IMG/VR virus record: IMGVR_UViG_3300009155_000057 | Source: an uncultured virus (IMG/VR IMGVR_UViG_3300009155_000057) | Lineage: Duplodnaviria; Heunggongvirae; Uroviricota; Caudoviricetes | Strand: one strand, 5' to 3' | Length of the DNA: 20,000 nt | Shown: positions 10 to 17,953 of the stretch, piece after piece | Numbering within the stretch: the stretch's first letter is position 1 | How the letters are laid out: every line of letters begins with the position of its first letter | Notes under the pieces: generated by a model | Told to the model about the DNA's origin: nothing | Seen by the model: the letters and a program-made list of their open reading frames with translations, nothing else | Database searches by the model: none | Position numbers and translations under genes: made by a program

Positions 10-606
10 ATGATGGAAATCAATATCGCAACCAAGCTTGCAAATGATATTCGTAATTCTCTTCGTGGAGTCTCCCGCGCTGAAGTTGCAGGTTCTGTTC
101 GACGCCAAAAGCAAAACGTCAAAGACATTGAGATTGTTGCAATGGTGAGCGATTGGGATGAGCTTTTTAGTTCTCTTGCTCCTCATGGTACATTCATCAA
201 GCCTGGTGTTCCTGATGTCATTCCTTGGCCTCCAAAGCGTGACTCAAAGTACATTCGGATGCTTCTCAATGACGGTTTGAATCTTGACTTTTTCATTGCT
301 AGCCCTGAGAATTGGGGTGGCCTCTTCATGATGCGAACTGGCTCTGGTGCGGGTCCTGACGGCAATCCGTTCAATGGATTTACTCCGGGTATGTTCATGC
401 GTTGGAAGCAAGTTTCAAATGGCGGAAAGATGACCGGGTGTATGCCAACCCTTCCTGACGGTCATCGGGTCATCATTCGAGAGGAGGAGGACTTTTTCCG
501 TCTTCTTGGAGTCAAGTGGGTTTCGGCCCCTGAGCGAATCGCTCGCTCTTCTATTAAGAAGATTCCTGGATACGTCCTTGATATCTCTCTTTGGGAAACG
601 GTCTGA
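10..606 (+). CDS. Minimal DNA polymerase X-family nucleotidyltransferase
   Basis: Motifs VAGSVRRQKQNVKDIEIV (GSxRR..D-x-E), LNLDFF, MMRTGS and EEEDFFRLLGVKWVSAPER match PolX palm/thumb. GAGGA RBS upstream. No 8-kDa or PHP domain. Confidence 0.8.
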   Translation: MMEINIATKLANDIRNSLRGVSRAEVAGSVRRQKQNVKDIEIVAMVSDWDELFSSLAPHGTFIKPGVPDVIPWPPKRDSKYIRMLLNDGLNLDFFIASPENWGGLFMMRTGSGAGPDGNPFNGFTPGMFMRWKQVSNGGKMTGCMPTLPDGHRVIIREEEDFFRLLGVKWVSAPERIARSSIKKIPGYVLDISLWETV

Positions 607-632
607 GACACTGGAAAAATTCGACGGTACCT

Positions 633-661
633 GTGCAAACAGGCCTGCCACATGGTATAGT
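633..661 (+). promoter_or_regulatory. Sigma70-like promoter GTGCAA-N17-TATAGT with extended TG
   Basis: Same NTGCAA-N17/18-TAnnnT pattern recurs at 1481, 1725, 9444, 16240 and 18461, each upstream of a gene or RNA unit. Confidence 0.6.
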
Positions 662-703: not shown

Positions 704-1453
704 ATGAAGCTGAATATCGGTAACGACGGCATCCCTTTCGGAACCAACATCAACAACATTACCGTTCCTGCTGAAATGCAGAAGCGCTTTATGTCTGGCC
801 TTGATTATTTTGATGCGGCCATCGGTGGTCGTGGCTTCACTCCGAGCACTTCGATGCTTTTCACCGGTGAATCCGGTGCTGGCAAGACCACGATGCTTCT
901 CACTCTTGCTGATCGACTTTCCCATAGTGGCGTCAGCGTTGTCTACAACACTGCTGAAGAGTCTCTCTATCAGGTGAAGATGACTTGTGATCGTCTTCGT
1001 TTCCGGCGTGGATTCGCTGTTGGCAGCGAAATCAATGTTGAGCGTCTCCTGAAGAAGGCGGATGTCATCCGAAACGCGGCTGCGGCTGCTGGAAAGCATT
1101 TTGTTCTCTTTGTGGATTCGCTCCAGTGTATGGACGATGACAATGGCGGCGGTGCTAATCGCCAAGCTGAACATGCTCTCTTCCGAATCACCTCTTGGTG
1201 CAAGGAGCACTATACCAATGCAATCGTCATTGGCCAGGTGACCAAGGGCGGCAAGTTCGCTGGTACGAACAAGTTGAAGCATGCCATTGATGCTCACCTC
1301 CATCTTGGCTTTGAAAAGAAGGACGAGGACCTCGTTGGTTGTCGAGTTCTTACTACCGAAAAGAATCGTTTCGGCGGTGGAGTCGGTGACACCACTTGGC
1401 TCTCTCTTGGTGAGAATGGCTTCAAGGTTGTTGCGGTCTCTCAAGAAGAGTAA
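704..1453 (+). CDS. radA: RadA/Sms-like RecA-fold ATPase (ATPase core only)
   Basis: Walker A GESGAGKT, AEES, Walker B LFVDSLQ, IGQVTKGGKFAG and the RadA signature KNRFG. AAGGAG RBS before ATG 704. Lacks the N-terminal Zn finger and C-terminal Lon-like domain. Confidence 0.85.
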   Translation: MKLNIGNDGIPFGTNINNITVPAEMQKRFMSGLDYFDAAIGGRGFTPSTSMLFTGESGAGKTTMLLTLADRLSHSGVSVVYNTAEESLYQVKMTCDRLRFRRGFAVGSEINVERLLKKADVIRNAAAAAGKHFVLFVDSLQCMDDDNGGGANRQAEHALFRITSWCKEHYTNAIVIGQVTKGGKFAGTNKLKHAIDAHLHLGFEKKDEDLVGCRVLTTEKNRFGGGVGDTTWLSLGENGFKVVAVSQEE

Positions 1454-1480
1454 CAACCCCGCAAAAAAATGCAAAAAAAA

Positions 1481-1509
1481 TTGCAATTTTTTGCGGAATG
1501 AGTTAATAT
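1481..1509 (+). promoter_or_regulatory. Promoter TTGCAA-N17-TAATAT at the head of the tRNA array, inside an inverted repeat
   Basis: 17-nt spacing. The -35 lies within the inverted repeat CCGCAAAAAA(1459-1468)/TTTTTTGCGG(1487-1496). Confidence 0.55.
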
Positions 1510-1617
1510 CTAATCAACACGGGGCGACAAAATGTTGCCTCAAAAAACGATCATTGACATATTGCTAATATATGTATGTAATTACTGATGTAGGGCCTAA
1601 AAATCCCTACATCTTAT

Positions 1618-1688
1618 GTCTCGCTGCTCAAGGAAGAGCGTTCAATGGACAGTCCATTGGATCCCTGGTTCGATTCCGGGGTGAGGCT
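1618..1688 (+). ncRNA. tRNA-like RNA with a palindromic arm replacing the anticodon arm
   Basis: Acceptor GTCTCGC/GTGAGGC, D stem GCTC/GAGC, T arm CCTGG-TTCGATT-CCGGG. Middle arm is CAATGGAC-A-GTCCATTG with no 7-nt anticodon loop. Confidence 0.7.
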
Positions 1689-1724
1689 TTAAATCAAAAC
1701 TGCGAATAAAAAAAGCATGAAGGT

Positions 1725-1753
1725 ATGCAAATCCGGCCGGCATGTGGTAATAT
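1725..1753 (+). promoter_or_regulatory. Promoter ATGCAA-N17-TAATAT (extended TG)
   Basis: Matches the recurrent motif and lies just upstream of tRNA-Ala. Confidence 0.6.
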
Positions 1754-1796
1754 AAGGACATACGGCGGCTGGAAAATAAAAACAAAAAAAACAAAT

Positions 1797-1868
1797 GGGG
1801 ATGTAAGCTAAACGGGAAACTGGCGGATTTGCACTCCGCTCTTAGGGGTTCGATTCCCCTCGTCTCCA
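1797..1868 (+). tRNA. tRNA-Ala(TGC)
   Basis: GGGGATG/CGTCTCC with G3:U70, GCGGA-TT TGC AC-TCCGC, T loop TTCGATT. CCA not encoded. Confidence 0.9.
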
Positions 1869-1875
1869 CTCTTTG

Positions 1876-1914
1876 GTGCCATCTTATTGGCGATGCATAA
1901 GATGAACACTTTTT
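1876..1914 (+). terminator. Hairpin plus T tract (possible intrinsic terminator)
   Basis: CATCTTAT/ATAAGATG stem followed by TTTTT. Confidence 0.4.
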
Positions 1915-1962
1915 CAACCCTTGACAATTTTTATTTTTGGTTGAAAATATTATAACGCATCG

Positions 1963-2097
1963 ACGTAATCACAGCACATGAAAATGTGTTTCCGCATCGT
2001 AACTGGCGGCAGGCTTGAATGGATATATGTATATCACTGTTTTGATACGTAATCACACCATTCTACTCCTTGGCCTGAGTGAACTGTGAAAAGGAGT
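1963..2097 (+). ncRNA. Candidate multi-stem pseudoknotted ncRNA
   Basis: Pairings TCACAG/CTGTGA, GCACAT-GAAA-ATGTGT, CCGC/GCGG, CAGGC/GCCTG, GAATGG/CCATTC and crossing ACTCCTT/AAGGAGT. No ORF. Confidence 0.5.
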
Positions 2098-2103
2098 TTT
2101 ATT

Positions 2104-2186
2104 GCCCCGGTTGCATAGAGGCCGATTGCACCGCTCTTGTAAGGCGGAATTCCACACCGTGAGTTCGAATCTCACTCGGGGCTCCA
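2104..2186 (+). tRNA. tRNA-Thr(TGT), 11-nt variable region
   Basis: GCCCCGG/TCGGGGC, CCGCT-CT TGT AA-GGCGG, GTGAG-TTCGAAT-CTCAC, CCA. Confidence 0.9.
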
Positions 2187-2195
2187 TTTAAATAT

Positions 2196-2269
2196 TGCGA
2201 GTTGGTGAAGCGGTCTAACACTGTTGGTTCATACCCAACCATTCACTGGTTCGAATCCAGTACTCGCAA
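2196..2269 (+). tRNA. tRNA-Met/Ile2(CAT)
   Basis: TGCGAGT/ACTCGCA, GTTGG-TT CAT AC-CCAAC, ACTGG-TTCGAAT-CCAGT. Confidence 0.88.
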
Positions 2270-2344
2270 CTTTTTTGTGTCGGATAGAGCAAAAATTTTA
2301 GAATATTTGCTCTATCCATATACTTAGCTACATTTCTAATACAT

Positions 2345-2808
2345 ATGAAACACACAACTGCAGGTACTGCAACAAGTCATACGAAAAGAAACAGTCAAAA
2401 TCAGCCCATGAGAAGTGGTGCAATTCCAAAGTCAGACCTGACCATTCCGGCAAAAAAAACCCCATGTGGGGCAAGTCTGGAAAAAATCAATGGTCAAAGG
2501 TTGACTGGGATAAGATTGCTTTTGAAGATCTGGGGATCATAAAAAAAAGAGAAAGGCTCCTAAAGGAATCCAATAACAGTTGCACTATGTGCGGTTTCTC
2601 AACGACAAAGGCCGACGGGACAGTGATACTCCAGATCGATCACATCGATGGCAATAGAAAGAACAATACTAAAGAAAATCTTAGAGTACTATGTCCCAAC
2701 TGTCATGCGGTATACTCCGAAAAATTCATGCACATAGGGCAGAAACACTCTGAAGAGTCAAAGAAAAAGTGCTCAAACACTCACTACCGTATCTCTTCGG
2801 TTTCCTAA
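2345..2808 (+). CDS. HNH endonuclease with N-terminal Zn finger and NUMOD3-like motifs; frameshifted at the extreme 5' end
   Basis: CTMCG...LQIDHIDGNRKNNTKENLRVLCPNCH is a clear HNH. The same frame extends upstream of 2464 as HNCRYCNKSYEKKQSKSAHEKWC..SGKKNPMWGK, but ATG 2345 is out of that frame. Confidence 0.85.
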
Positions 2809-2846
2809 ATCTGAGGTTGTAAGTTCAAGTCTTACAGGGGATACCA
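2791..2846 (+). tRNA. D-armless tRNA-Arg(CCT)-like element overlapping the HNH stop codon
   Basis: ATCTCTT/AGGGGAT acceptor, TT CCT AA loop, GTAAG-TTCAAGT-CTTAC, ACCA end. No D arm. Confidence 0.6.
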
Positions 2847-2851
2847 TTTAT

Positions 2852-2926
2852 GCACCCATGGTCAAGCGGTCAAGACGCTGGATTTTCACTCCGGAATGAC
2901 GGGTTCGATTCCCGTTGGGTGTACCA
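2852..2926 (+). tRNA. tRNA-Glu(TTC)
   Basis: GCACCCA/TGGGTGT, CTGGA-TT TTC AC-TCCGG, canonical T arm, CCA. Confidence 0.93.
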
Positions 2927-2935
2927 TATAAATAC

Positions 2936-3022
2936 GGGAGAGACGCGGAACGGGTATCCGCACCAGACTGTAAATCTGGCCCTCATAGAGGATTGTAAGT
3001 TCGAGCCTCACCTCTCCCACCA
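2936..3022 (+). tRNA. tRNA-Tyr(GTA)
   Basis: GGGAGAG/CTCTCCC, CCAGA-CT GTA AA-TCTGG, long variable arm, CCA. One T-stem mismatch. Confidence 0.9.
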
Positions 3023-3041
3023 CTTTGATAATCAAAAAAAT

Positions 3042-3116
3042 GGGCTGTAAGTGTTGTTGGGGGCACACGGGCTTTGCAAGCCTGAAGGACCGGTTCGATC
3101 CCGGTACGGTCCACCA
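3042..3116 (+). tRNA. tRNA-Ala(TGC), second gene
   Basis: GGGCTGT/ACGGTCC with G3:U70, CGGGC-TT TGC AA-GCCTG, CCA. Confidence 0.9.
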
Positions 3117-3121
3117 TTTTT

Positions 3122-3200
3122 CTGGGAATAGCGCAGCCTGGTTAGCGCGCCTGCCTTGGACGCAGGAGGTTCGTGAGTTCAAATCCCACTTCCCAGACCA
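3122..3200 (+). tRNA. tRNA-Pro(TGG)
   Basis: CTGGGAA/TTCCCAG, CCTGC-CT TGG AC-GCAGG, CCA. Confidence 0.92.
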
Positions 3201-3208
3201 TTTCATTC

Positions 3209-3284
3209 GGGTTGTTAGCTCAGTTGGTAGAGCGGCGGACATCAGGGCGCCACGTCGCAGGTTCGATCCCTGCACAACCCACCA
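3209..3284 (+). tRNA. tRNA-Lys-like body with aberrant anticodon arm (positional anticodon TCA)
   Basis: 76 nt with perfect acceptor GGGTTGT/ACAACCC, D arm GCTC-AGTTGGTA-GAGC, T arm and CCA. The anticodon region GGCGGACATCAGGGCGCC does not pair in the canonical register. Confidence 0.75.
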
Positions 3285-3292
3285 CTTCATAC

Positions 3293-3358
3293 GGGGTGTC
3301 TACTCATTAGGAGTAAATGACCGGTCAGTATCAGGTTGAAATCCTGAGCAACCCTCCA
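3293..3358 (+). ncRNA. 66-nt anticodon-less tRNA-like RNA
   Basis: GGGGTGT/GCAACCC-T-CCA, TACTC-ATTAG-GAGTA arm, TGACCGGTCA mini-palindrome, TCAGG-TTGAAAT-CCTGA T-like arm. Confidence 0.7.
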
Positions 3359-3364
3359 CTTTAT

Positions 3365-3458
3365 GCGCCCATATCGGAACTGCCTTCTAAGCAGGTGCTC
3401 ATCGTAGAGTAAACCCCGTAATTGGATTATGTAGGTTCGAGTCCTACTGGGCGTACCA
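3365..3458 (+). tRNA. Rearranged tRNA-Arg(TCT): no D arm, ~35-nt expanded variable region
   Basis: GCGCCCA/TGGGCGT-A-CCA, only TATCGGAA before CTGC-CT TCT AA-GCAG, then TGCTC-ATCGTA-GAGTA and CCG-TAATTGGATTAT, perfect T arm. Confidence 0.75.
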
Positions 3459-3460
3459 TT

Positions 3461-3539
3461 TGAATGATTTGCGATTGGTCCTTGACCACTGGGTCATTGC
3501 CCCCACCATTTGGAATGGTGCCCGAAAACAAATCATTCG
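3461..3539 (+). ncRNA. Four-way-junction structured RNA followed by a T tract
   Basis: Closing stem GAATGATTTG/CAAATCATTC encloses TGGTC-CTT-GACCA, GGG-TCATTG-CCC and CACCATT-TGG-AATGGTG. Confidence 0.6.
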
Positions 3540-3585
3540 TTTTTTCTTCAAAACTAAAGTCCCTTAACATTGAAAGGAGATACAA

Positions 3586-3636
3586 ATGAGTATTGTTTTG
3601 TCACTGCTTATTCTAATCGTAGTTGTAATTGGTTAG
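3586..3636 (+). CDS. 16-aa hydrophobic peptide MSIVLSLLILIVVVIG
   Basis: Strong AAGGAG RBS (3574-3579) 6 nt before ATG and tandem stops TAG TAA. Below the ORF-track cutoff. Confidence 0.55.
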   Translation: MSIVLSLLILIVVVIG

Positions 3637-3645
3637 TAAATCTGA

Positions 3646-3720
3646 GCACCCATGGTCAATTGGTTAAGACGCTGGATTTTCACTCCGGAATGGCGGGTTC
3701 GAGTCCTACTGGGCGTACCA
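3646..3720 (+). tRNA. Chimeric tRNA-Glu(TTC) with a 3' end from the Arg(TCT) gene
   Basis: The 5' part is nearly identical to the 2852 Glu gene. The 3' 25 nt are identical to the Arg(TCT) end, giving mismatches in the acceptor and T stems. Confidence 0.8.
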
Positions 3721-3739
3721 TCTCGATCAAGAGGATAGA

Positions 3740-4015
3740 ATGAAGATCACTTCTGATATGTGCAAAGCGGCGATTGCCGCCAAGGCAGCTGAGAATCCAG
3801 ACTACATTCGATCGCAGTTTGTTCTCCAGCCTGGAGAGAAATTTGACACAAGCTCTTGCACAAAAGTCAAAAACTGGAAACGACTGAGCAAAGAAATGAA
3901 TGATTGGGGATTCACAGAACGAGCGTTTGACTGCGTTCCATACGATGATTAACTTCGTGCATATACGCTTGATGACGGAAATAAAATTCTATCTGTTGAA
4001 ATCGTGGGAGAGTAA
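3740..4015 (+). pseudogene. Hypothetical protein interrupted by an in-frame TAA at 3950-3952
   Basis: GAGGA RBS. The frame continues past the stop as LRAYTLDDGNKILSVEIVGE to TAA 4013-4015. Confidence 0.55.
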
Positions 4016-4058
4016 TTTAGACTACAAGTCTAAAGCTTTAGATTCAAGCAAAGCTTTT

Positions 4059-4131
4059 GGATCAATAGCTTAATTGACAGAGCGTGGGACTACGGATCCC
4101 GATGGTAAAGGTTTAACTCCTTTTTGGTCCA
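4059..4131 (+). tRNA. tRNA-Arg(ACG), divergent D/T loops
   Basis: GGATCAA/TTGGTCC, TGGGA-CT ACG GA-TCCCG, D loop AATTGACA, T loop TTTAACT. Confidence 0.75.
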
Positions 4132-4174
4132 CTTTTCCTCCAAGACACCAATTTTTAAATAAAAGGAACAAGCA

Positions 4175-4366
4175 ATGTCAAATGAGCAACTTTATTCTAT
4201 TTCATGTAGTTGCGGATCACATTACAGACTTCAGGATAATTACTTGGTTTGGTATTGTGGACTTCCTGGATGCAATTTGAGTTATGTACGCTCTCGTTCA
4301 CAAGAGCCTGAGGAGGAAGGGGCCTCAATGATGTCACCCAGCGACTTTAAGAATTATTACAAATAA
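4175..4366 (+). CDS. Small Zn-ribbon-like protein
   Basis: AAGGA RBS; CSCG and CGLPGC cysteine pairs. Confidence 0.6.
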   Translation: MSNEQLYSISCSCGSHYRLQDNYLVWYCGLPGCNLSYVRSRSQEPEEEGASMMSPSDFKNYYK

Positions 4367-4376
4367 TGTTTATTAT

Positions 4377-4453
4377 ACGAGTGTAGCTCAGTTGGTTAGA
4401 GCACCCGACTGATATTCAGGAGCGCAATGGTTCGACTCCACTCACTCGTACCA
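4377..4453 (+). tRNA. tRNA-Ile(GAT)
   Basis: ACGAGTG/CACTCGT, CT GAT AT loop, CCA. Single mismatches in the anticodon and T stems. Confidence 0.87.
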
Positions 4454-4458
4454 TTTTT

Positions 4459-4535
4459 AGGATGATAGCTCAATTGGACAGAGCACCAGACTACGAATCT
4501 GGCGGTTGAAGGTTCGACTCCTTTTCATCCTACCA
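4459..4535 (+). tRNA. tRNA-Arg(ACG)
   Basis: AGGATGA/TCATCCT, CCAGA-CT ACG AA-TCTGG, A20-containing D loop, CCA. Confidence 0.93.
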
Positions 4536-4583
4536 TTTTAAATCGGAAGTCTAAATAAATTTGTTGATGTTAATATAATAAAT

Positions 4584-4666
4584 GGGATGCTAGCTTAATG
4601 GCAGAGCGGGCCCGTGGAGGCCCGTGGAGGGCCGAGATATAGGTTCGATCCCTATGCATACCCACC
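4584..4666 (+). ncRNA. tRNA-like RNA or pseudo-tRNA with a tandem 10-nt duplication in the anticodon arm
   Basis: GGGATGC/GCATACCC (bulged), GCTT/GAGC D stem, CCCGTGGAGG x2 (4611-4630), ATAGG-TTCGATC-CCTAT. Confidence 0.65.
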
Positions 4667-4672
4667 TTCTAT

Positions 4673-4746
4673 ACGGACATAGCTCAGCTGGTTAGAGCAG
4701 ATGATTCCAAATCATCAGGTCAGAGGTTCGAATCCTTTTGTCCGTG
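4673..4746 (+). tRNA. tRNA-Trp(CCA)
   Basis: ACGGACA/TGTCCGT-G73, GATGA-TT CCA AA-TCATC. Confidence 0.92.
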
Positions 4747-4763
4747 CTTTTTAAAATTGATTT

Positions 4764-4837
4764 GGCTTGATGGTGTAATGGGAGCACCCTTGACTGAAGA
4801 TCAAGTAGTAGCAGTTCGACCCTGCTTCGAGCCACCA
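4764..4837 (+). tRNA. tRNA-Phe(GAA)
   Basis: GGCTTGA/TCGAGCC, CTTGA-CT GAA GA-TCAAG, CCA. Confidence 0.9.
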
Positions 4838-4867
4838 CTTAAATACCAAAAAAAACAAGGAAAAAAC

Positions 4868-5098
4868 GTGAAGTTCATAATTGAATTTCTTGATGGGATT
4901 AGTGTGATTTTTTATGTTTTGTCAGTTTTTTTTATGGTTCTTGTACTAGCAAGGTTAGCTAGTGTAGGGATACTTCCAGCTTTATTTTATTGGCGTGACT
5001 TGTTTGTTAGCGGAAATCCTAATGCTATACTCCTACCAGTACTGGTTTTCTGCTTTGCATTTGTTTTGGATACAATTTCTACTTTTATTAAAAAGTGA
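4868..5098 (+). CDS. Small membrane protein (2-3 TM segments)
   Basis: GTG start after AAGGA and hydrophobic stretches. The ORF-track start at 4757 lies just upstream of tRNA-Phe, reads through it and is rejected. Confidence 0.65.
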   Translation: MKFIIEFLDGISVIFYVLSVFFMVLVLARLASVGILPALFYWRDLFVSGNPNAILLPVLVFCFAFVLDTISTFIKK

Positions 5099-5123
5099 TT
5101 GGATTAACAATCAAAACTATTGA

Positions 5124-5198
5124 TGCGGGGTATATCAGTGGCTGATAGCAAGGCTCATAACCTTGAGGACGCCGGTTCGATTCCGGCCCCCGCTTCCA
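5124..5198 (+). tRNA. tRNA-Met(CAT), initiator-like
   Basis: TGCGGGG/CCCCGCT with 1:72 mismatch, CAAGG-CT CAT AA-CCTTG, CCA. Confidence 0.88.
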
Positions 5199-5217
5199 TC
5201 TTAAAAAGGAGCAATAC

Positions 5218-5538
5218 ATGAGCTTCACTATGAAGTTTGTTTGCTGTGAAGTTGATGATGCTGAGGAAATTATTCCAAACTCTGGTTGCGGTGAGGTAGA
5301 TCATCTTCATTTGGATCTGTACAATTACATTGATACAGCTGGTGAAGGTCTTTATGTTACCCTCAAAAATGACGGAACAGTCTTCTTTAAGGAAGAACAA
5401 TCCTGGTATCATCCAAGTTATTGGGATCAATCCAAGCTCATTGAGATTGTTAAGAGCACCACCAACAAGAAGTACTCTCTTGATTTTGGTCAATGTCCCA
5501 ATTGTGGTGAATGCGCTCTTGTTGAATATAGTGAATAA
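5218..5538 (+). CDS. Hypothetical acidic protein with C-terminal CPNCG
   Basis: AAGGAG RBS, 106-aa ORF. Confidence 0.75.
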   Translation: MSFTMKFVCCEVDDAEEIIPNSGCGEVDHLHLDLYNYIDTAGEGLYVTLKNDGTVFFKEEQSWYHPSYWDQSKLIEIVKSTTNKKYSLDFGQCPNCGECALVEYSE

Positions 5539-5580
5539 GATTAATTGTAATTGAGCAAAATTTGCTCTTACAAACTAAGT

Positions 5581-5749
5581 TTGGCAGTAGCTCAAGAGAT
5601 GATATGGAATCCTCGCGCAAGGTTCTGTATTGTTACGATATCCAGAAAAATTTTTAGTGTGGGTCGACACACATTAGACATCTTTTGGAGAATGCTTAGA
5701 GCACCATTCCGCGGAGGGGTGGAGATGATGCACAGTGCATCCTGTTCAA
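5581..5749 (+). ncRNA. ~170-nt tRNA-shaped RNA with two long hairpins inserted in the D loop
   Basis: GGCAG/CTGTT, TA-GCTC(5590)...GAGC(5699), GU-rich hairpins 5598-5634 and 5641-5689, CCATTCC-GCGGA-GGGGTGG, GATGC-ACAGT-GCATC. Confidence 0.6.
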
Positions 5750-5753
5750 TAAT

Positions 5754-5829
5754 GGGAGGTTAGCTCAGTCGGGAGAGCAATAGCCTTACAAGCTATGGGT
5801 CATTGGTTCGAACCCAATACCTCCCACCA
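5754..5829 (+). tRNA. tRNA-Val(TAC)
   Basis: GGGAGGT/ACCTCCC, ATAGC-CT TAC AA-GCTAT, CCA. Confidence 0.93.
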
Positions 5830-5846
5830 TTTCAAATAAGTTTTGT

Positions 5847-5922
5847 TGCAGGTTGGTGAAGTGGCCTACCACGAGCGGGTTCATACTTGCTTTATTCATC
5901 GGTTCGAATCCGATACCTGCTA
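5847..5922 (+). tRNA. tRNA-Met(CAT), anticodon arm out of register by 1 nt
   Basis: TGCAGGT/ACCTGCT, AGCGGG-TTCATA-CTTGCT, ATCGG-TTCGAAT-CCGAT. Confidence 0.75.
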
Positions 5923-5927
5923 CCGCT

Positions 5928-6001
5928 GTGTCTGTTCCCTAATTGGTTAAGGGGCCTGGTTGTGACCCAGGTATATGCGGGTTCAAGTCCCGCCAGACAC
6001 C
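5928..6001 (+). tRNA. tRNA-His(GTG)
   Basis: GTGTCTG/CAGACAC-C73, CCTGG-TT GTG AC-CCAGG. G-1 is not encoded (T at 5927). Confidence 0.9.
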
Positions 6002-6057
6002 TTTTTAAGACAGTGTGTTTTCATCTAAGGTAATATACAGCTAATAAAAGGATAATT

Positions 6058-6402
6058 ATGCATCGTCCATCGACAATTACTTCTGCTTTTATCTTTAGCG
6101 TTAAGGTTAAGAAAAATAACGAATTTGTTGATACTCTTGTTCTTACTTACGAAATTGCTGATATTTTATATCACATGAAAGATATAACTGAAATTAAAAA
6201 GTTGGATAATATCCGTGTGTACGGAACGCTTCTTGGCAGAAATGTTGATATTTGGAAGTCATCAAATGGTGATTACATGGCCTTTGCTGAAAAATGGAAT
6301 ATCAATCCTTCGCCTAATCCTGATGAAAATGCTTTATTGATGGTAGTTGAAGGCAATGTCGCTACTGTATCTCCGCGCCAACATGATTGGGATCGCGACT
6401 AA
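6058..6402 (+). CDS. Hypothetical protein
   Basis: AAGGA RBS, 114-aa ORF. Confidence 0.7.
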   Translation: MHRPSTITSAFIFSVKVKKNNEFVDTLVLTYEIADILYHMKDITEIKKLDNIRVYGTLLGRNVDIWKSSNGDYMAFAEKWNINPSPNPDENALLMVVEGNVATVSPRQHDWDRD

Positions 6403-10159: not shown

Positions 10160-10654
10160 ATGCCTCGTCCAAATGATGTCGGCGTCGGAACTGCTTGTAT
10201 CATCTACAAGGTTATTGGCCGTAAATTTCAAGTTCTTCTCATGAAGCGTCAAGGCGCTCATTGCGCCGGCCAGTGGGCTGTTCCTGGAGGTTGGCTCGAT
10301 CGTCCTGATGAAACGACTTCGGGGGCGGTTTGCCGCGAGGTTGCAGAAGAGACGGGAATCACCCTTGAAGAGTCCAAGGTCCATCACTATCAATGGACTA
10401 CTGAAGACCATCCAGATATTGGTTGCCGCAGCGTGACTTTGTATCATACTACCCAAGTGCCGCCCGACCAGGTGCCGCAAATCATGGAGCCCAATAAGTG
10501 CACCGAAATGCGCTGGGTAGGTTACAGTGAATTGCTTGAATTTGTAAAAAGCGAGCCCATTTTTCCTGGACTTGCCAGAATTCTAAATGATTTTTGCTAC
10601 GGACTGAGCATGGTGATCATTCATGCTCCAGAAGAAAGTGAAAGCGAAGAGTAG
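10160..10654 (+). CDS. Nudix hydrolase (MutT/NUDT15-like)
   Basis: WAVPGGWLDRPDETTSGAVCREVAEETG Nudix box; PQIMEPNKCTEMRW. Confidence 0.9.
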   Translation: MPRPNDVGVGTACIIYKVIGRKFQVLLMKRQGAHCAGQWAVPGGWLDRPDETTSGAVCREVAEETGITLEESKVHHYQWTTEDHPDIGCRSVTLYHTTQVPPDQVPQIMEPNKCTEMRWVGYSELLEFVKSEPIFPGLARILNDFCYGLSMVIIHAPEESESEE

Positions 10655-14537: not shown

Positions 14538-15155
14538 ATGAAACAATATCCTTCGATTAGCCATCTAACAAAAAAGACAAACCTCAATGACACGTACTAT
14601 GTGTTTGATAAGCTTGATGGATCAAATGTGCGGGTCGTCGTAGACAAGGAAGCAATCAAGAGCGGCATTCTTACAAAGCTTGGAAAGCGTAGCGGTTTGC
14701 TTGATGACAAAACCCCGTTTCTGATTGAGTCAAAAGACCTTATCTCTGCTCTTAGCAAGAATCTAATCCGAATGGTAAAAGATTCTAAGTGGCAAGAAGC
14801 AACTTTCTTTTTTGAATTTTATGGAGATTCCTCTTTCTCAGGAGCTCACTTTGATGAGCCTCATAAAGTCTCCTTGATTGATATTGACGTTTATAAAAAG
14901 GGAATCCTGCCCCCAGATCAGTTTTTGCCGCTGGCTGCAGCTTACAATATCCCTTATGCAAGGATGCTTCGCATTGGTAACATTGATGAAAACTTCCAAA
15001 AGAGTGTTGAAGATTCAACAGTTGAAGGCATGACTTTCGAAGGAGTTGTTTGTAAAAACAACACCAGCACATTTAAAATCAAAAGTAAGGCCTGGCTTGC
15101 AAAGCTAAAAGAAAAGTGTGGGGATGATGAGGAATTGTTCTCTAAGCTTCGATAA
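14538..15155 (+). CDS. ATP-dependent RNA ligase-like protein (Rnl2-type nucleotidyltransferase domain)
   Basis: Motif I DKLDGSN, motif III FEFYG, IIIa LIDI, IV EGVVCK, V FKIKS. Confidence 0.75.
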   Translation: MKQYPSISHLTKKTNLNDTYYVFDKLDGSNVRVVVDKEAIKSGILTKLGKRSGLLDDKTPFLIESKDLISALSKNLIRMVKDSKWQEATFFFEFYGDSSFSGAHFDEPHKVSLIDIDVYKKGILPPDQFLPLAAAYNIPYARMLRIGNIDENFQKSVEDSTVEGMTFEGVVCKNNTSTFKIKSKAWLAKLKEKCGDDEELFSKLR

Positions 15156-15170: not shown

Positions 15171-15383
15171 ATGACTGTTAAAGATCTAATCAAGAAGCTT
15201 AAAGAATATGATGATGACACTATTGTTACCGTTTGTGAATACAGCGGATCAGAAGATCTTTATCGCAAAATAAAATTCATTGAAAGAATGATCTACACAG
15301 GAAACGCTTCTGATAAACTCAAAAAGAAGTTGAAGAACCACACTCCTGGCGCAATTTACCTAACCGCATTTGAGAGAGGATAA
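15171..15383 (+). CDS. Small hypothetical phage protein
   Basis: AAGGAGG RBS; MTVKDLIKKLKEYDDD N-terminus typical of small phage proteins. Confidence 0.75.
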   Translation: MTVKDLIKKLKEYDDDTIVTVCEYSGSEDLYRKIKFIERMIYTGNASDKLKKKLKNHTPGAIYLTAFERG

Positions 15384-15885
15384 AGCGCTTTTAACGTCCC
15401 CTGACATTCTTGGTCATGATGACTACTTCATTCGCAGAATTTTTCTTGCAGGTTCCATTGAAAATGAAAAAGCAATTGATTGGCAGGCCGACCTTTATGA
15501 AAAGGTAATGAAAGGTCTTACGAAAAATAATCGTGAAGATTTGTTTAATGAAAGTGTTGTCTTCTTTAATCCAAGACGAAAAGAATGGAATCCAAATGCA
15601 AGTGAAAAAGAACTGACGACCCAAATTAATTGGGAGCTTAGTCACCTGACCGAGTCAAATATCGTTTTCTTTTTTCTTGCAAAGGGAACGATTAGCCCAA
15701 TTTCTCTCCTTGAGCTTGGGTTAATGATTCGCACCAATAAAAAAATCATTGTTGTGTGTGAAGATGATTATTTTCGCGCAACGAATGTTAGTGAAACTTT
15801 AAGATTCTTTAGAAATCAATTTGTGTTTTCAACTCTAGAAGACGGAATTAATGCTCTTATTAAAGAAATTTCATTGGAATTGTAA
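15370..15885 (+). CDS. Nucleoside 2-deoxyribosyltransferase-like protein
   Basis: IFLAGSI, FFNPRR, QINWEL, SPISLLELG motifs. Confidence 0.85.
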   Translation: MREDKALLTSPDILGHDDYFIRRIFLAGSIENEKAIDWQADLYEKVMKGLTKNNREDLFNESVVFFNPRRKEWNPNASEKELTTQINWELSHLTESNIVFFFLAKGTISPISLLELGLMIRTNKKIIVVCEDDYFRATNVSETLRFFRNQFVFSTLEDGINALIKEISLEL

Positions 15886-16752: not shown

Positions 16753-16845
16753 GGAAGGTTACCGAAGTGGTCATAACGGCGGCGCCTTGAAAGCGGATGA
16801 GCCCCGAAAGGGGGTCCGTGAGTTCGAATCTCACCGCTTCCGCCA
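16753..16845 (+). tRNA. tRNA-Ser(TGA), with stem mismatches
   Basis: GGAAG/CTTCC-G73-CCA, CT TGA AA loop, long variable arm CCCC-GAAA-GGGG, perfect T arm. Two mismatches each in the acceptor and anticodon stems. Confidence 0.82.
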
Positions 16846-16912
16846 TTTCCTATAAACCGTGACAAGCTTGTCACTTTTAAAAACAGTCAAAATAGCAACT
16901 CGGACGGACAAA

Positions 16913-17953
16913 ATGACTAAGTATGTGTTTGTAATCGGTCGGTTCCAGAATTTCCATATCGGCCATCAGTCTCTTCTTGAGACTGCCTCTCTCCATGGAG
17001 AGAAGCTGGTCGTGCTTGTTGGTAGCGCAAATGCTCCAAAGAGCATCCGAAACCCATATACATATTCCCAGCGTGCCAAGGTGCTGAAGGCCGCCGGCTA
17101 TGAAAATGTGTATCCTCTAAACGATTACCACAATGACAATGTTTGGGTGTCCCAGGTAAAGGCTCTCATCGCGTCCATTACGAATGGACAGTCTTATTGC
17201 ATTGCGGGTTCGAACAAGGACGAGTCTACATACTACCTCAACATCTTTGGTGATGTGAAGGTTGTTCAAATTCCACAGTTCTTCCTTGATGGCGGCGAAA
17301 CTGTGAATGCGACCAAGTTTCGAAATGCAATGTTTGCAGGTTTTAGCAAGGGTTGTTGGTCTACTGAGTGTGAAAAGTATCAATCGACTTCCATGAAAGC
17401 AAACCATCTCCTCATGGAGCAATTTTCTTATGTCGCTCCCAGCCTCATTGAAGAATGGCGGCATGTCAAGGAGTACGCAAAGCTGTGGAGCGGTTCTCCA
17501 TTCCCTCCAATTTTTGTGACTGCTGACAACGTTGTTTGTCATCGTGACAAGTTTCTCGCCATTGTGCGAAAGGGTCATCCGGGTCGAGGCCTATACGCTC
17601 TTCCTGGTGGATTCATTGATGAAAAGGAAACTATTCGAGCTTCCGCGCTGCGGGAACTTCGGGAAGAGACGAGTATCGAAATCTTCAACTCCCGAAGTGG
17701 ATCAAAGATTCCTTTCCAGAATGAGTGGTTCATCAAGTCTCAGGTCTTTGATGCTCCAAGTCGTTCTATTCGTGGTCGCACAATCACGCATGCCTTTCAT
17801 TGGAAGATTCCTGACACTCTTAATGTGAGTATTGCAGCCGCCGATGATGCTGCTGATGCTCTTTGGATGCCTCTTACTTACCTTGACGATCCAATGAACA
17901 TGGCAACTTTCATGGAAGATCACTTCAACATCATCAAGACAATGGTCCTTTGA
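16913..17953 (+). CDS. nadM: Bifunctional NMN adenylyltransferase / Nudix hydrolase (NadM-Nudix)
   Basis: IGRFQNFHIGH, VGSAN..RNPY, PFPPIFVTADNVV, ALPGGFIDEKET...LRELREET, RSIRGRTITHA, AADDA, EDHFNII. Confidence 0.95.
   Translation: MTKYVFVIGRFQNFHIGHQSLLETASLHGEKLVVLVGSANAPKSIRNPYTYSQRAKVLKAAGYENVYPLNDYHNDNVWVSQVKALIASITNGQSYCIAGSNKDESTYYLNIFGDVKVVQIPQFFLDGGETVNATKFRNAMFAGFSKGCWSTECEKYQSTSMKANHLLMEQFSYVAPSLIEEWRHVKEYAKLWSGSPFPPIFVTADNVVCHRDKFLAIVRKGHPGRGLYALPGGFIDEKETIRASALRELREETSIEIFNSRSGSKIPFQNEWFIKSQVFDAPSRSIRGRTITHAFHWKIPDTLNVSIAAADDAADALWMPLTYLDDPMNMATFMEDHFNIIKTMVL

Follow-up and report, generated by a model that had tools for sequence, protein, structure and literature searches.

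The gene at positions 3365-3458 (+) of the window (the whole 20,000-nt stretch of DNA analyzed here) encodes a candidate tRNA-Arg(UCU) whose parts are linked in an unusual order, with the D stem forming an outer helix around the anticodon arm and the D loop lying 3′ of that arm. By sequence comparison, this rewired layout is real, conserved and widespread, recurring in hundreds of phage genes that are mostly unannotated. The first-pass annotation had read the window gene as just such a topologically rewired tRNA, a proposal that gains support from covariation, a relocated GG motif and the base at position 20. Comparison among homologs shows the outer helix and the moved GG motif, as well as a link between position 20 (and, in genes with Ile/Met anticodons, A73) and the anticodon; it also shows canonical genes being replaced slot for slot. 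We consider it probable (roughly 80%) that the RNA is a working tRNA-Arg(UCU) that decodes AGA and is charged by the host ArgRS.

The record comprises 77,989 bases (41% complete), and the window forms its end. On the plus strand, the window carries an array of ~30 tRNA and tRNA-like genes, 25 of which are called by ARAGORN. The gene under study is built as follows:

3365-3458 (+): rewired 'type 1' tRNA-Arg(UCU), complete, CCA encoded, with all elements located as below
3365-3371 (+): 5′ strand of the acceptor stem, 7 of 7 pairs with 3448-3454, one of them G·U
3372-3373 (+): U8 and the next A (TA in 173/173 aligned genes, albeit base-fixed by the search patterns and filters)
3374-3378 (+): equivalent of the D-stem 3′ strand (positions 22-25, TCGG at 3374-3377) plus position 26 (A3378), placed before the anticodon arm and covarying with 3416-3419
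3379-3395 (+): anticodon arm with stem 3379-3383/3391-3395, loop 3384-3390 and anticodon TCT at 3386-3388; U33, A37
3396-3411 (+): optional extra hairpin of 5 pairs, one G·U, predicted in the single-sequence fold
3416-3419 (+): equivalent of the D-stem 5′ strand (positions 10-13; CCG at 3416-3418), placed after the anticodon arm, with U13 opposite U22
3420-3426 (+): relocated D loop A14 A15 U U G18 G19 A20 (the D-loop-like stretch spans 3419-3426)
3427-3430 (+): connector ending in the conserved A47 U48 (A in 240/242 and U in 235/242 genes, U48 being pre-fixed only in the scan for non-A at position 20)
3431-3447 (+): T arm, 5 bp with a standard loop, perfect by direct reading and in the Rfam alignment
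3448-3458 (+): 3′ strand of the acceptor (3448-3454), then discriminator A73 and CCA (3455-3458), by direct reading

The perfect acceptor and T arms and the CCA claimed at first reading are borne out by these elements, and the 8 nt originally counted between the acceptor and anticodon stems holds for a 4-bp anticodon stem, corresponding to 7 nt in standard numbering. This stem has four pairs and an A·G mismatch at 27-43, a position paired in only 67% of the type 1 family (173-gene alignment). Measured against a canonical tRNA (RF00005), the window gene has the 7-bp acceptor, the 5-bp T stem with its TTC loop, the discriminator, the CCA and a regular anticodon arm (7-nt loop, U33, purine 37), and departs from it in cloverleaf order: a 7-nt linker without a D stem-loop joins the acceptor and anticodon arms, and the D stem spans the anticodon arm. 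If the relocated GGA is equated with positions 18-20, the Arg identity set (A20, C35, U/G36, A/G/U73) is present. A3373 may take the place of canonical A21 or A9, and a Levitt pair A15·U48 would form at the connector.

Annotation tools treat this gene in different ways. Standard finders had been expected to miss it, and ARAGORN indeed makes no call at 3365-3458 at either its default or a 90% threshold, whereas RF00005 aligns to it with 33.7 bits, i.e. above the gathering score of 29, albeit only via deletion of the D arm and a 32-nt insert. Rfam returned no family for the rewired layout in the window or in eight carrier loci; its Plastid-ycf2 matches were rejected as antisense tRNA artefacts below the gathering score. 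A family model (R1) assigned 78.3 bits to the window gene, which was in its training set, versus at most 30 bits to every other tRNA of the window. A plasmid search returned no match, and among the best 40 of 110 matches from BLAST of positions 3200-3760 against phage records, only neighboring tRNAs were matched. The minimum-energy fold of the single sequence lacks the 3-bp CGG/CCG pairing, and 8 of 200 shuffles fold equally well (z = −1.86). On the lone sequence, this pairing is no better than chance; it is significant only with homologs.

Covariation of CGG and CCG was one of the points on which the original proposal had staked itself, and this covariation proved strong. In a structure-anchored alignment of 173 distinct type 1 genes (effective number 119), the pair 11:24, which was unconstrained by any search pattern or filter, ranked first of 3158 column pairs by MI-APC, ahead of every acceptor, anticodon and T-stem pair. 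It occurs as C-G (64 genes), U-A (48), G-C (39), A-U (21) and U-G (1), and thus in all four Watson-Crick types. The flanking pairs 10:25 (73% paired) and 12:23 ranked 14 and 24 in the same alignment. When 242 distinct genes were pooled, 11:24 was paired in all 242, 12:23 in 241 (the sole miss, L397, being a mis-parsed gene) and 10:25 in 192, leaving the latter unpaired in 50. Using 56 genes hand-picked from the 173, RNAalifold recovered the outer helix unaided; with these genes, none of 500 shuffles matched the helix and slid registers were 20-39% paired, while the 100% pairing at 10:25 in this selection overstates the family value (192/242). The resulting D stem is short, comprising 3 bp plus a U·U. 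As most search patterns fixed TA, C23/G12, U13, A14, A15, GG and the T loop, invariance at these positions is no evidence of conservation, except in a relaxed scan.

In that relaxed scan, which did not request a D loop and yielded 103 distinct hits, GGA was found downstream of the anticodon arm in 45 of 45 genes with an acceptor beside the short linker, and an acceptor lay beside the linker in 0 of 57 hits with a short variable region. No plain D-armless gene was among the 103. A D-loop-like segment 3′ of the anticodon arm, as initially suggested, is hence recovered even when it is not asked for, and its position 20 tracks the anticodon. These observations bear on a simpler reading, according to which the gene encodes a D-armless tRNA in animal-mitochondrial style with a long variable region, or one that loses its extra segment through intron splicing. 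The Rfam alignment takes precisely this form, and the 5′ linker is unpaired in the single-sequence fold. Against it stand the covariation between linker and segment and the two counts from the relaxed scan; besides, the segment of ~14-40 nt is below the size of group I or II introns, and Rfam intron families gave no match at the window gene. Removal of an intron would leave the window gene without D elements, and a segment that carries GG in 45/45 genes and couples position 20 to the anticodon is unlike an intron, so that this reading is largely refuted and very improbable.

Of 175 genes with Arg anticodons, 173 have A at position 20, and of 66 genes with NAT (Ile/Met) anticodons, 65 have U there; all 66 of the latter carry A73. 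Both classes, Arg/A20 and NAT/U20, are present in each of four loop-length groups that we defined. A20 is a determinant for ArgRS, and the bacterial Arg and Ile determinants as given in Table 1 of PMC9976931 fit the A20/U20/A73 pattern. Since anticodon and position 20 change together, we infer the relocated loop to be read by a synthetase, in keeping with the A20-like identity from the opposite strand that had been predicted. None of five near-complete carrier phages encodes an ArgRS gene, which argues for the host enzyme as the likely reader.

To delineate the family, viral contigs were scanned with a pattern that combined a TCT loop with a T loop and a TGGA at some distance. This returned at least 79 distinct genes with paired acceptor and anticodon stems and a 7-11 nt linker, of which, among those listed, at least 33 were type 1 like the window gene and at least 46 belonged to a second type. 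The search for further Arg anticodons that the first-pass annotation had suggested was successful: scans with A20 fixed and the anticodon left free retrieved 143 loci with 90 distinct matches, and the 83 passing the stem filter were all Arg, with anticodons ACG (49), CCT (23), TCG (6), CCG (2), GCG (1) and, as neighbors, TCT (2). Scanning for non-A at position 20 gave at least 97 matches, at least 34 of which passed, with TAT (15), GAT (11), CAT (6), CCA (1) and TCT (1) among the matches listed; a scan for TAT, TGT or TTT with position 20 free returned TAT in 45 of 45 genes, 44 of them with U20. The tRNA-Arg identity proposed for the window gene thus describes most members but not the family as a whole, which includes Ile/Met anticodons with U20. 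The CCA case (L275, 183-263, −), type-1-like with G20, is the only one beyond Arg and Ile/Met and may be real or a chance fit.

The layout extends to GTDB, with 31 loci, all 31 on MAG contigs; 19 of 30 distinct genes pass, and the carrier loci that were checked adjoin other tRNA genes. Dense arrays of 10-30 tRNAs were seen on the MAG contigs of L384, L388, L391, L393, L401, L408 and L412, which are assigned to Acidobacteria, Alphaproteobacteria and Planctomycetes and hold one or two rewired Arg genes per array. With a type 1 query, matches came from 303 cultured-phage records, the weakest of them confined to the T arm; among the 60 matches listed, five were labeled tRNA-Arg, these being T-arm-only matches, and the others carried no label, tRNA-OTHER, tRNA-Undet or an unrelated feature.

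The second type is represented by L445, L451, L686 and 70 other loci, nearly all of them Arg(TCT), including T4-like Acinetobacter phages. Anticodon and position 20 combine as TCT/A20 in 70 genes, TAT/U20 in two and TCT/U20 in one. Their D-like stem measures 5-6 bp, and the acceptor branch often looks like 8/4. With 73 genes aligned and one dropped, pairs of the 5-6 bp outer helix ranked 7, 9 and 17 of 3003 column pairs. A second helix crosses the outer helix and so makes a pseudoknot; its mean best run was 2.81 pairs, compared to 2.06 ± 0.07 in 2000 shuffles that ignore relatedness. Type 2 genes occur in cultured Acinetobacter, Vibrio and Aeromonas phages, where no tRNA label was found among the 60 matches listed.

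Rewired and canonical genes replace one another at the same genomic position. In Streptomyces phage CeilingFan, a canonical tRNA-Arg(UCU) follows tRNA-Gly(GCC), and in Genie2 an unannotated rewired gene occupies this slot, with the same neighbors and the same 3′ flank. Likewise, the slot flanked by Ile(GAT) and Ser(TGA) holds a canonical gene in Sf14 and a rewired one in Felix O1; the Felix O1 genome paper states in the portion considered here that a tRNA for AGA was expected but not found (PMC3185647). A canonical-spaced TCT pattern was present in 2 of 39 records with a rewired TCT gene as opposed to 20 of 48 with another rewired Arg gene (Fisher's p = 1.2e-4), a comparison that leaves out one further record with rewired TCT, and in which many records are fragments and part of the canonical-spaced matches are chance or amber-type loops. 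Restricting it to records at least 90% complete left 0 of 16 versus 7 of 11 (p = 3.7e-4); as the records are related, both p values overstate independence. In the long ORFs of the 78-kb contig that holds the window gene, 241 of the 854 Arg codons are AGA, and the contig contains no other TCT gene.

This replacement also speaks to a reading in which the RNA is a tRNA mimic or decoy that folds and is perhaps charged, and that binds or distracts ArgRS/IleRS, a tRNA-cleaving defense enzyme or a stress sensor without decoding. Covariation alone attests structure, not decoding; other tRNA-like genes with broken anticodon loops lie in the same array; and there is precedent for irregular tRNAs that are charged yet go unused, in that six allo-tRNA(UAU) variants and two G-1 tRNAs are described as inactive in translation in the part of PMC5389517 drawn on here. 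A decoy would, however, be expected beside the canonical gene, whereas the rewired gene replaces and nearly excludes the canonical gene of the same anticodon; the anticodon loops are regular 7-nt loops, and the anticodons are limited to Arg and Ile/Met with the matching position 20. We therefore regard a decoy as unlikely.

A promoter and terminator scan of positions 1400-6100 gave chance-level hits only. A run search with the Felix O1-like locus L020 returned 23 matches, all of them Logan contigs, and in four RNA runs the rewired gene sits within ordinary long contigs that are possibly DNA.

For a working tRNA, the preferred reading, we propose that the normal L shape is reached by another path of the chain. 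Where the canonical order is 1-7, 8-9, 10-21, 22-43, 44-48, 49-76, the rewired order would be 1-7, U8-A, 22-43, loop, 10-20, a connector with A47-U48, and 49-76. The anticodon arm would thereby be surrounded by the D stem as an outer helix, and the D loop would turn into a junction strand that runs on to the T arm. In the core of a normal tRNA, residues 8, 14, 15, 21 and 48 meet, as do 10, 25, 26 and 44-45; re-linking 8 to 22, 43 to 10 and 20 to 48 should hence need only short connectors, and the L shape can stay. By analogy to standard tRNA structure, the elbow would be rebuilt via U8·A14, A15·U48, G18·U55 and G19-C56, and conservation of GG and of A47-U48 is compatible with an L fold and a D-loop/T-loop elbow. 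RNase P, the CCA enzyme and EF-Tu would meet an unchanged acceptor/T domain, the host ArgRS would read A20, C35 and U36 and then charge the tRNA, and the ribosome would use it at AGA codons during infection.

Several accounts may explain why phages keep this isomer. It could be a near-neutral form exchanged by recombination, an account to which we give just under even odds. A serious possibility, though we would not bet on it, is that the isomer evades some tRNA-targeting enzyme recognizing the D/variable region; phage tRNAs have been proposed or shown to counter tRNA-cleaving defenses, as set out in the portions of PMC10264068 and PMC11555353 considered here. Some other reason for its retention seems unlikely. 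A broader view, in which phages possess a second tRNA architecture (the cloverleaf isomer plus the pseudoknotted subtype) that is accepted by the host, has repeatedly switched between Arg and Ile and escapes defenses reading the D/variable region, is offered tentatively, and we lean against it as a whole.

To our knowledge, the order acceptor-D-anticodon-variable-T is held to be universal in mature tRNAs, and the known exceptions shorten or lose arms, never reorder them. One of the closest known systems is the canonical tRNA-Arg(UCU) (RF00005; Sf14, CeilingFan, T4, T5), which shares the 7/5 acceptor/T domain, the 7-nt anticodon loop, GG-A20, A/G/U73, CCA and a place in tRNA arrays; the acceptor and T arm of the T5 gene are nearly as in the rewired L043. 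The rewired gene, in contrast, lacks a D hairpin between acceptor and anticodon arm; its anticodon arm is enclosed by the D stem and followed on its 3′ side by the D loop, as a junction strand. The allo-tRNAs and (8/4) tRNAs of Mukai et al. 2017 (PMC5389517) are likewise non-standard bacterial or phage tRNAs in which Arg and Ile(UAU) anticodons are prominent, and the D-like stem and frequent 8/4-like branch of type 2 recall them. As described in the portion of that paper considered here, they retain the cloverleaf order, a D stem-loop, a long variable arm and Ser/Ala identity, whereas the rewired gene has 7/5, Arg identity and altered connectivity; of their hallmarks (an 8/4 or 9/3 branch, a long variable arm, a D stem with tetraloop), the window gene shows a 7/5 branch instead and no D hairpin. 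'Five-stem-junction' forms referred to there (Supplementary Figure S5) could bear on novelty. D-armless mitochondrial tRNA-Ser, in the account of PMC7609411 that we used, has a similarly short connector from acceptor to anticodon arm and loses the D arm, whereas the rewired gene keeps stem and loop, including the GG motif, in a relocated position.

Permuted tRNA genes mature to an ordinary cloverleaf, and YrlA is devoid of an anticodon. Both the circularly permuted tRNA genes (PMC3978253) and the permuted tRNA-like YrlA RNA (RF02553) encode tRNA parts out of textbook order; the rewired gene, by comparison, has normal ends and departs only in its internal order. One might suppose that here, too, the transcript is cut and rejoined to a cloverleaf, as in red algae and archaea, and the window does encode an RNA ligase family protein (14538-15155, +), which could also serve tRNA repair. 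Yet the acceptor strands come in normal order rather than 3′ half before 5′ half, one circularization would be insufficient and three cuts plus three joins would be required, and there is no conserved splice-like motif between the blocks, making such processing extremely improbable. Rfam gave no YrlA match at the window gene. Among odd small RNAs inside phage tRNA clusters, T4 rnaC and rnaD and T5 RNAI, III, IV, 1, 2 and 3 offer a further likeness; none of these stable RNAs fits the family model or shows the rewired layout, and both phages have a canonical Arg(UCU).

The rewired tRNA is, in these terms, a new architecture inside a known kind of molecule. In the open literature, with subscription journals and supplements outside the scope of the search, we found no description of the family; that it is already in print is doubtful, with a small but real chance. 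Candidate viral RNAs in PMC10690425 overlap tRNA-Arg calls, without a rewired layout in the portion of that paper considered here. If working, the tRNA would imply that shape rather than connectivity is what synthetase, RNase P, EF-Tu and ribosome recognize, and would provide a natural scaffold for orthogonal tRNA design. The family corrects phage annotation, and in Felix O1, phi92-like, Streptomyces, Acinetobacter and Vibrio phages it would amount to an uncounted AGA reader, which bears on codon-compensation analyses. The allele pairs Genie2/CeilingFan and Felix O1/Sf14, each with one anticodon, one slot and two topologies, open the old question of what phages gain from tRNAs of their own to direct testing.

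The window copy has peculiarities of its own. The TGCTC/GAGTA hairpin noted at first reading exists at 3396-3411 with its 5 pairs, but it is an optional insertion outside the family design: the loop between the anticodon stem and position 10 measures 20 nt in the window gene as opposed to 3-13 nt in 169 of 173 genes. No close relative carrying the long insertion was found in viral contigs, and a metagenome scan showed it in 5 of 14 loci. Among these, L427 does not differ from the window over the region and may come from the same population, and L417, whose flanks are different, has a single change that turns the hairpin G·U into G-C; in L403 the hairpin is shorter. In sequence, the window hairpin resembles a canonical D arm that has decayed and lost its GG, as might be expected if it arose via duplication or recombination. 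Given the rare 20-nt insertion and the A·G at 27-43, the window copy could be weaker than the family average.

The same two irregularities might point to a decaying pseudogene, or to an allele kept only for resistance to a neighboring homing endonuclease. The last 26 nt of the gene are also duplicated in a chimeric Glu gene (3696-3721), and HNH genes adjoin some carriers. Even so, every family position is preserved, as is every stem pair apart from 27-43, L417 keeps the gene between other flanks with its pair-preserving change, and a crude motif test placed HNH-like ORFs next to 15 of 138 rewired tRNAs and 44 of 411 canonical ones, without enrichment. We hold either fate to be exceedingly improbable.

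Several neighbors are odd as well. Immediately upstream, a 66-nt tRNA-like gene (3293-3358, +), missed by ARAGORN and Rfam, combines an acceptor stem, a small D-like hairpin, a T arm and CCA without an anticodon loop. Together with the window gene it forms a block conserved in L417, L419, L421 and L427, where flanks differ, and its relatives repair its single acceptor mismatch. The Glu chimera, a tRNA-Glu(TTC) at 3646-3721 (+), resembles the Glu gene at 2852 in its 5′ part and ends in the 3′ end of the window gene, with resulting acceptor and T-stem mismatches; it looks like a product of recombination in the T arm. An Arg(CCT) remnant at 2784-2846 (+), following the HNH gene at 2464-2808, has a rewired-like start (TA linker, anticodon arm) and a canonical 3′ end (variable loop, T arm, CCA), and a fragment of a canonical Arg D arm lies upstream of the HNH gene at ~2281-2293; the remnant is possibly a canonical/rewired hybrid left by HNH insertion. 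The genes at 3209-3284, 4584-4663 and 5847-5924 (+) are tRNA-shaped, with good acceptor, D and T arms and irregular anticodon loops (ARAGORN '???'); those at 3209 and 4584 recur in L427. In L417, a gene at 572-648 (+) has the body of the window's tRNA-Pro(TGG) (3122-3200), but its anticodon loop is shortened and ARAGORN assigns it a stop anticodon.

Elsewhere in the window, the plus strand encodes a cytidylyltransferase-like and NUDIX fusion (16859-17953), a second NUDIX protein (10160-10654) and a nucleoside 2-deoxyribosyltransferase-like protein (15370-15885). A tRNA-Ser(TGA)-like gene at 16763-16845 (+) is isolated from the array and is called only at a lowered ARAGORN threshold.
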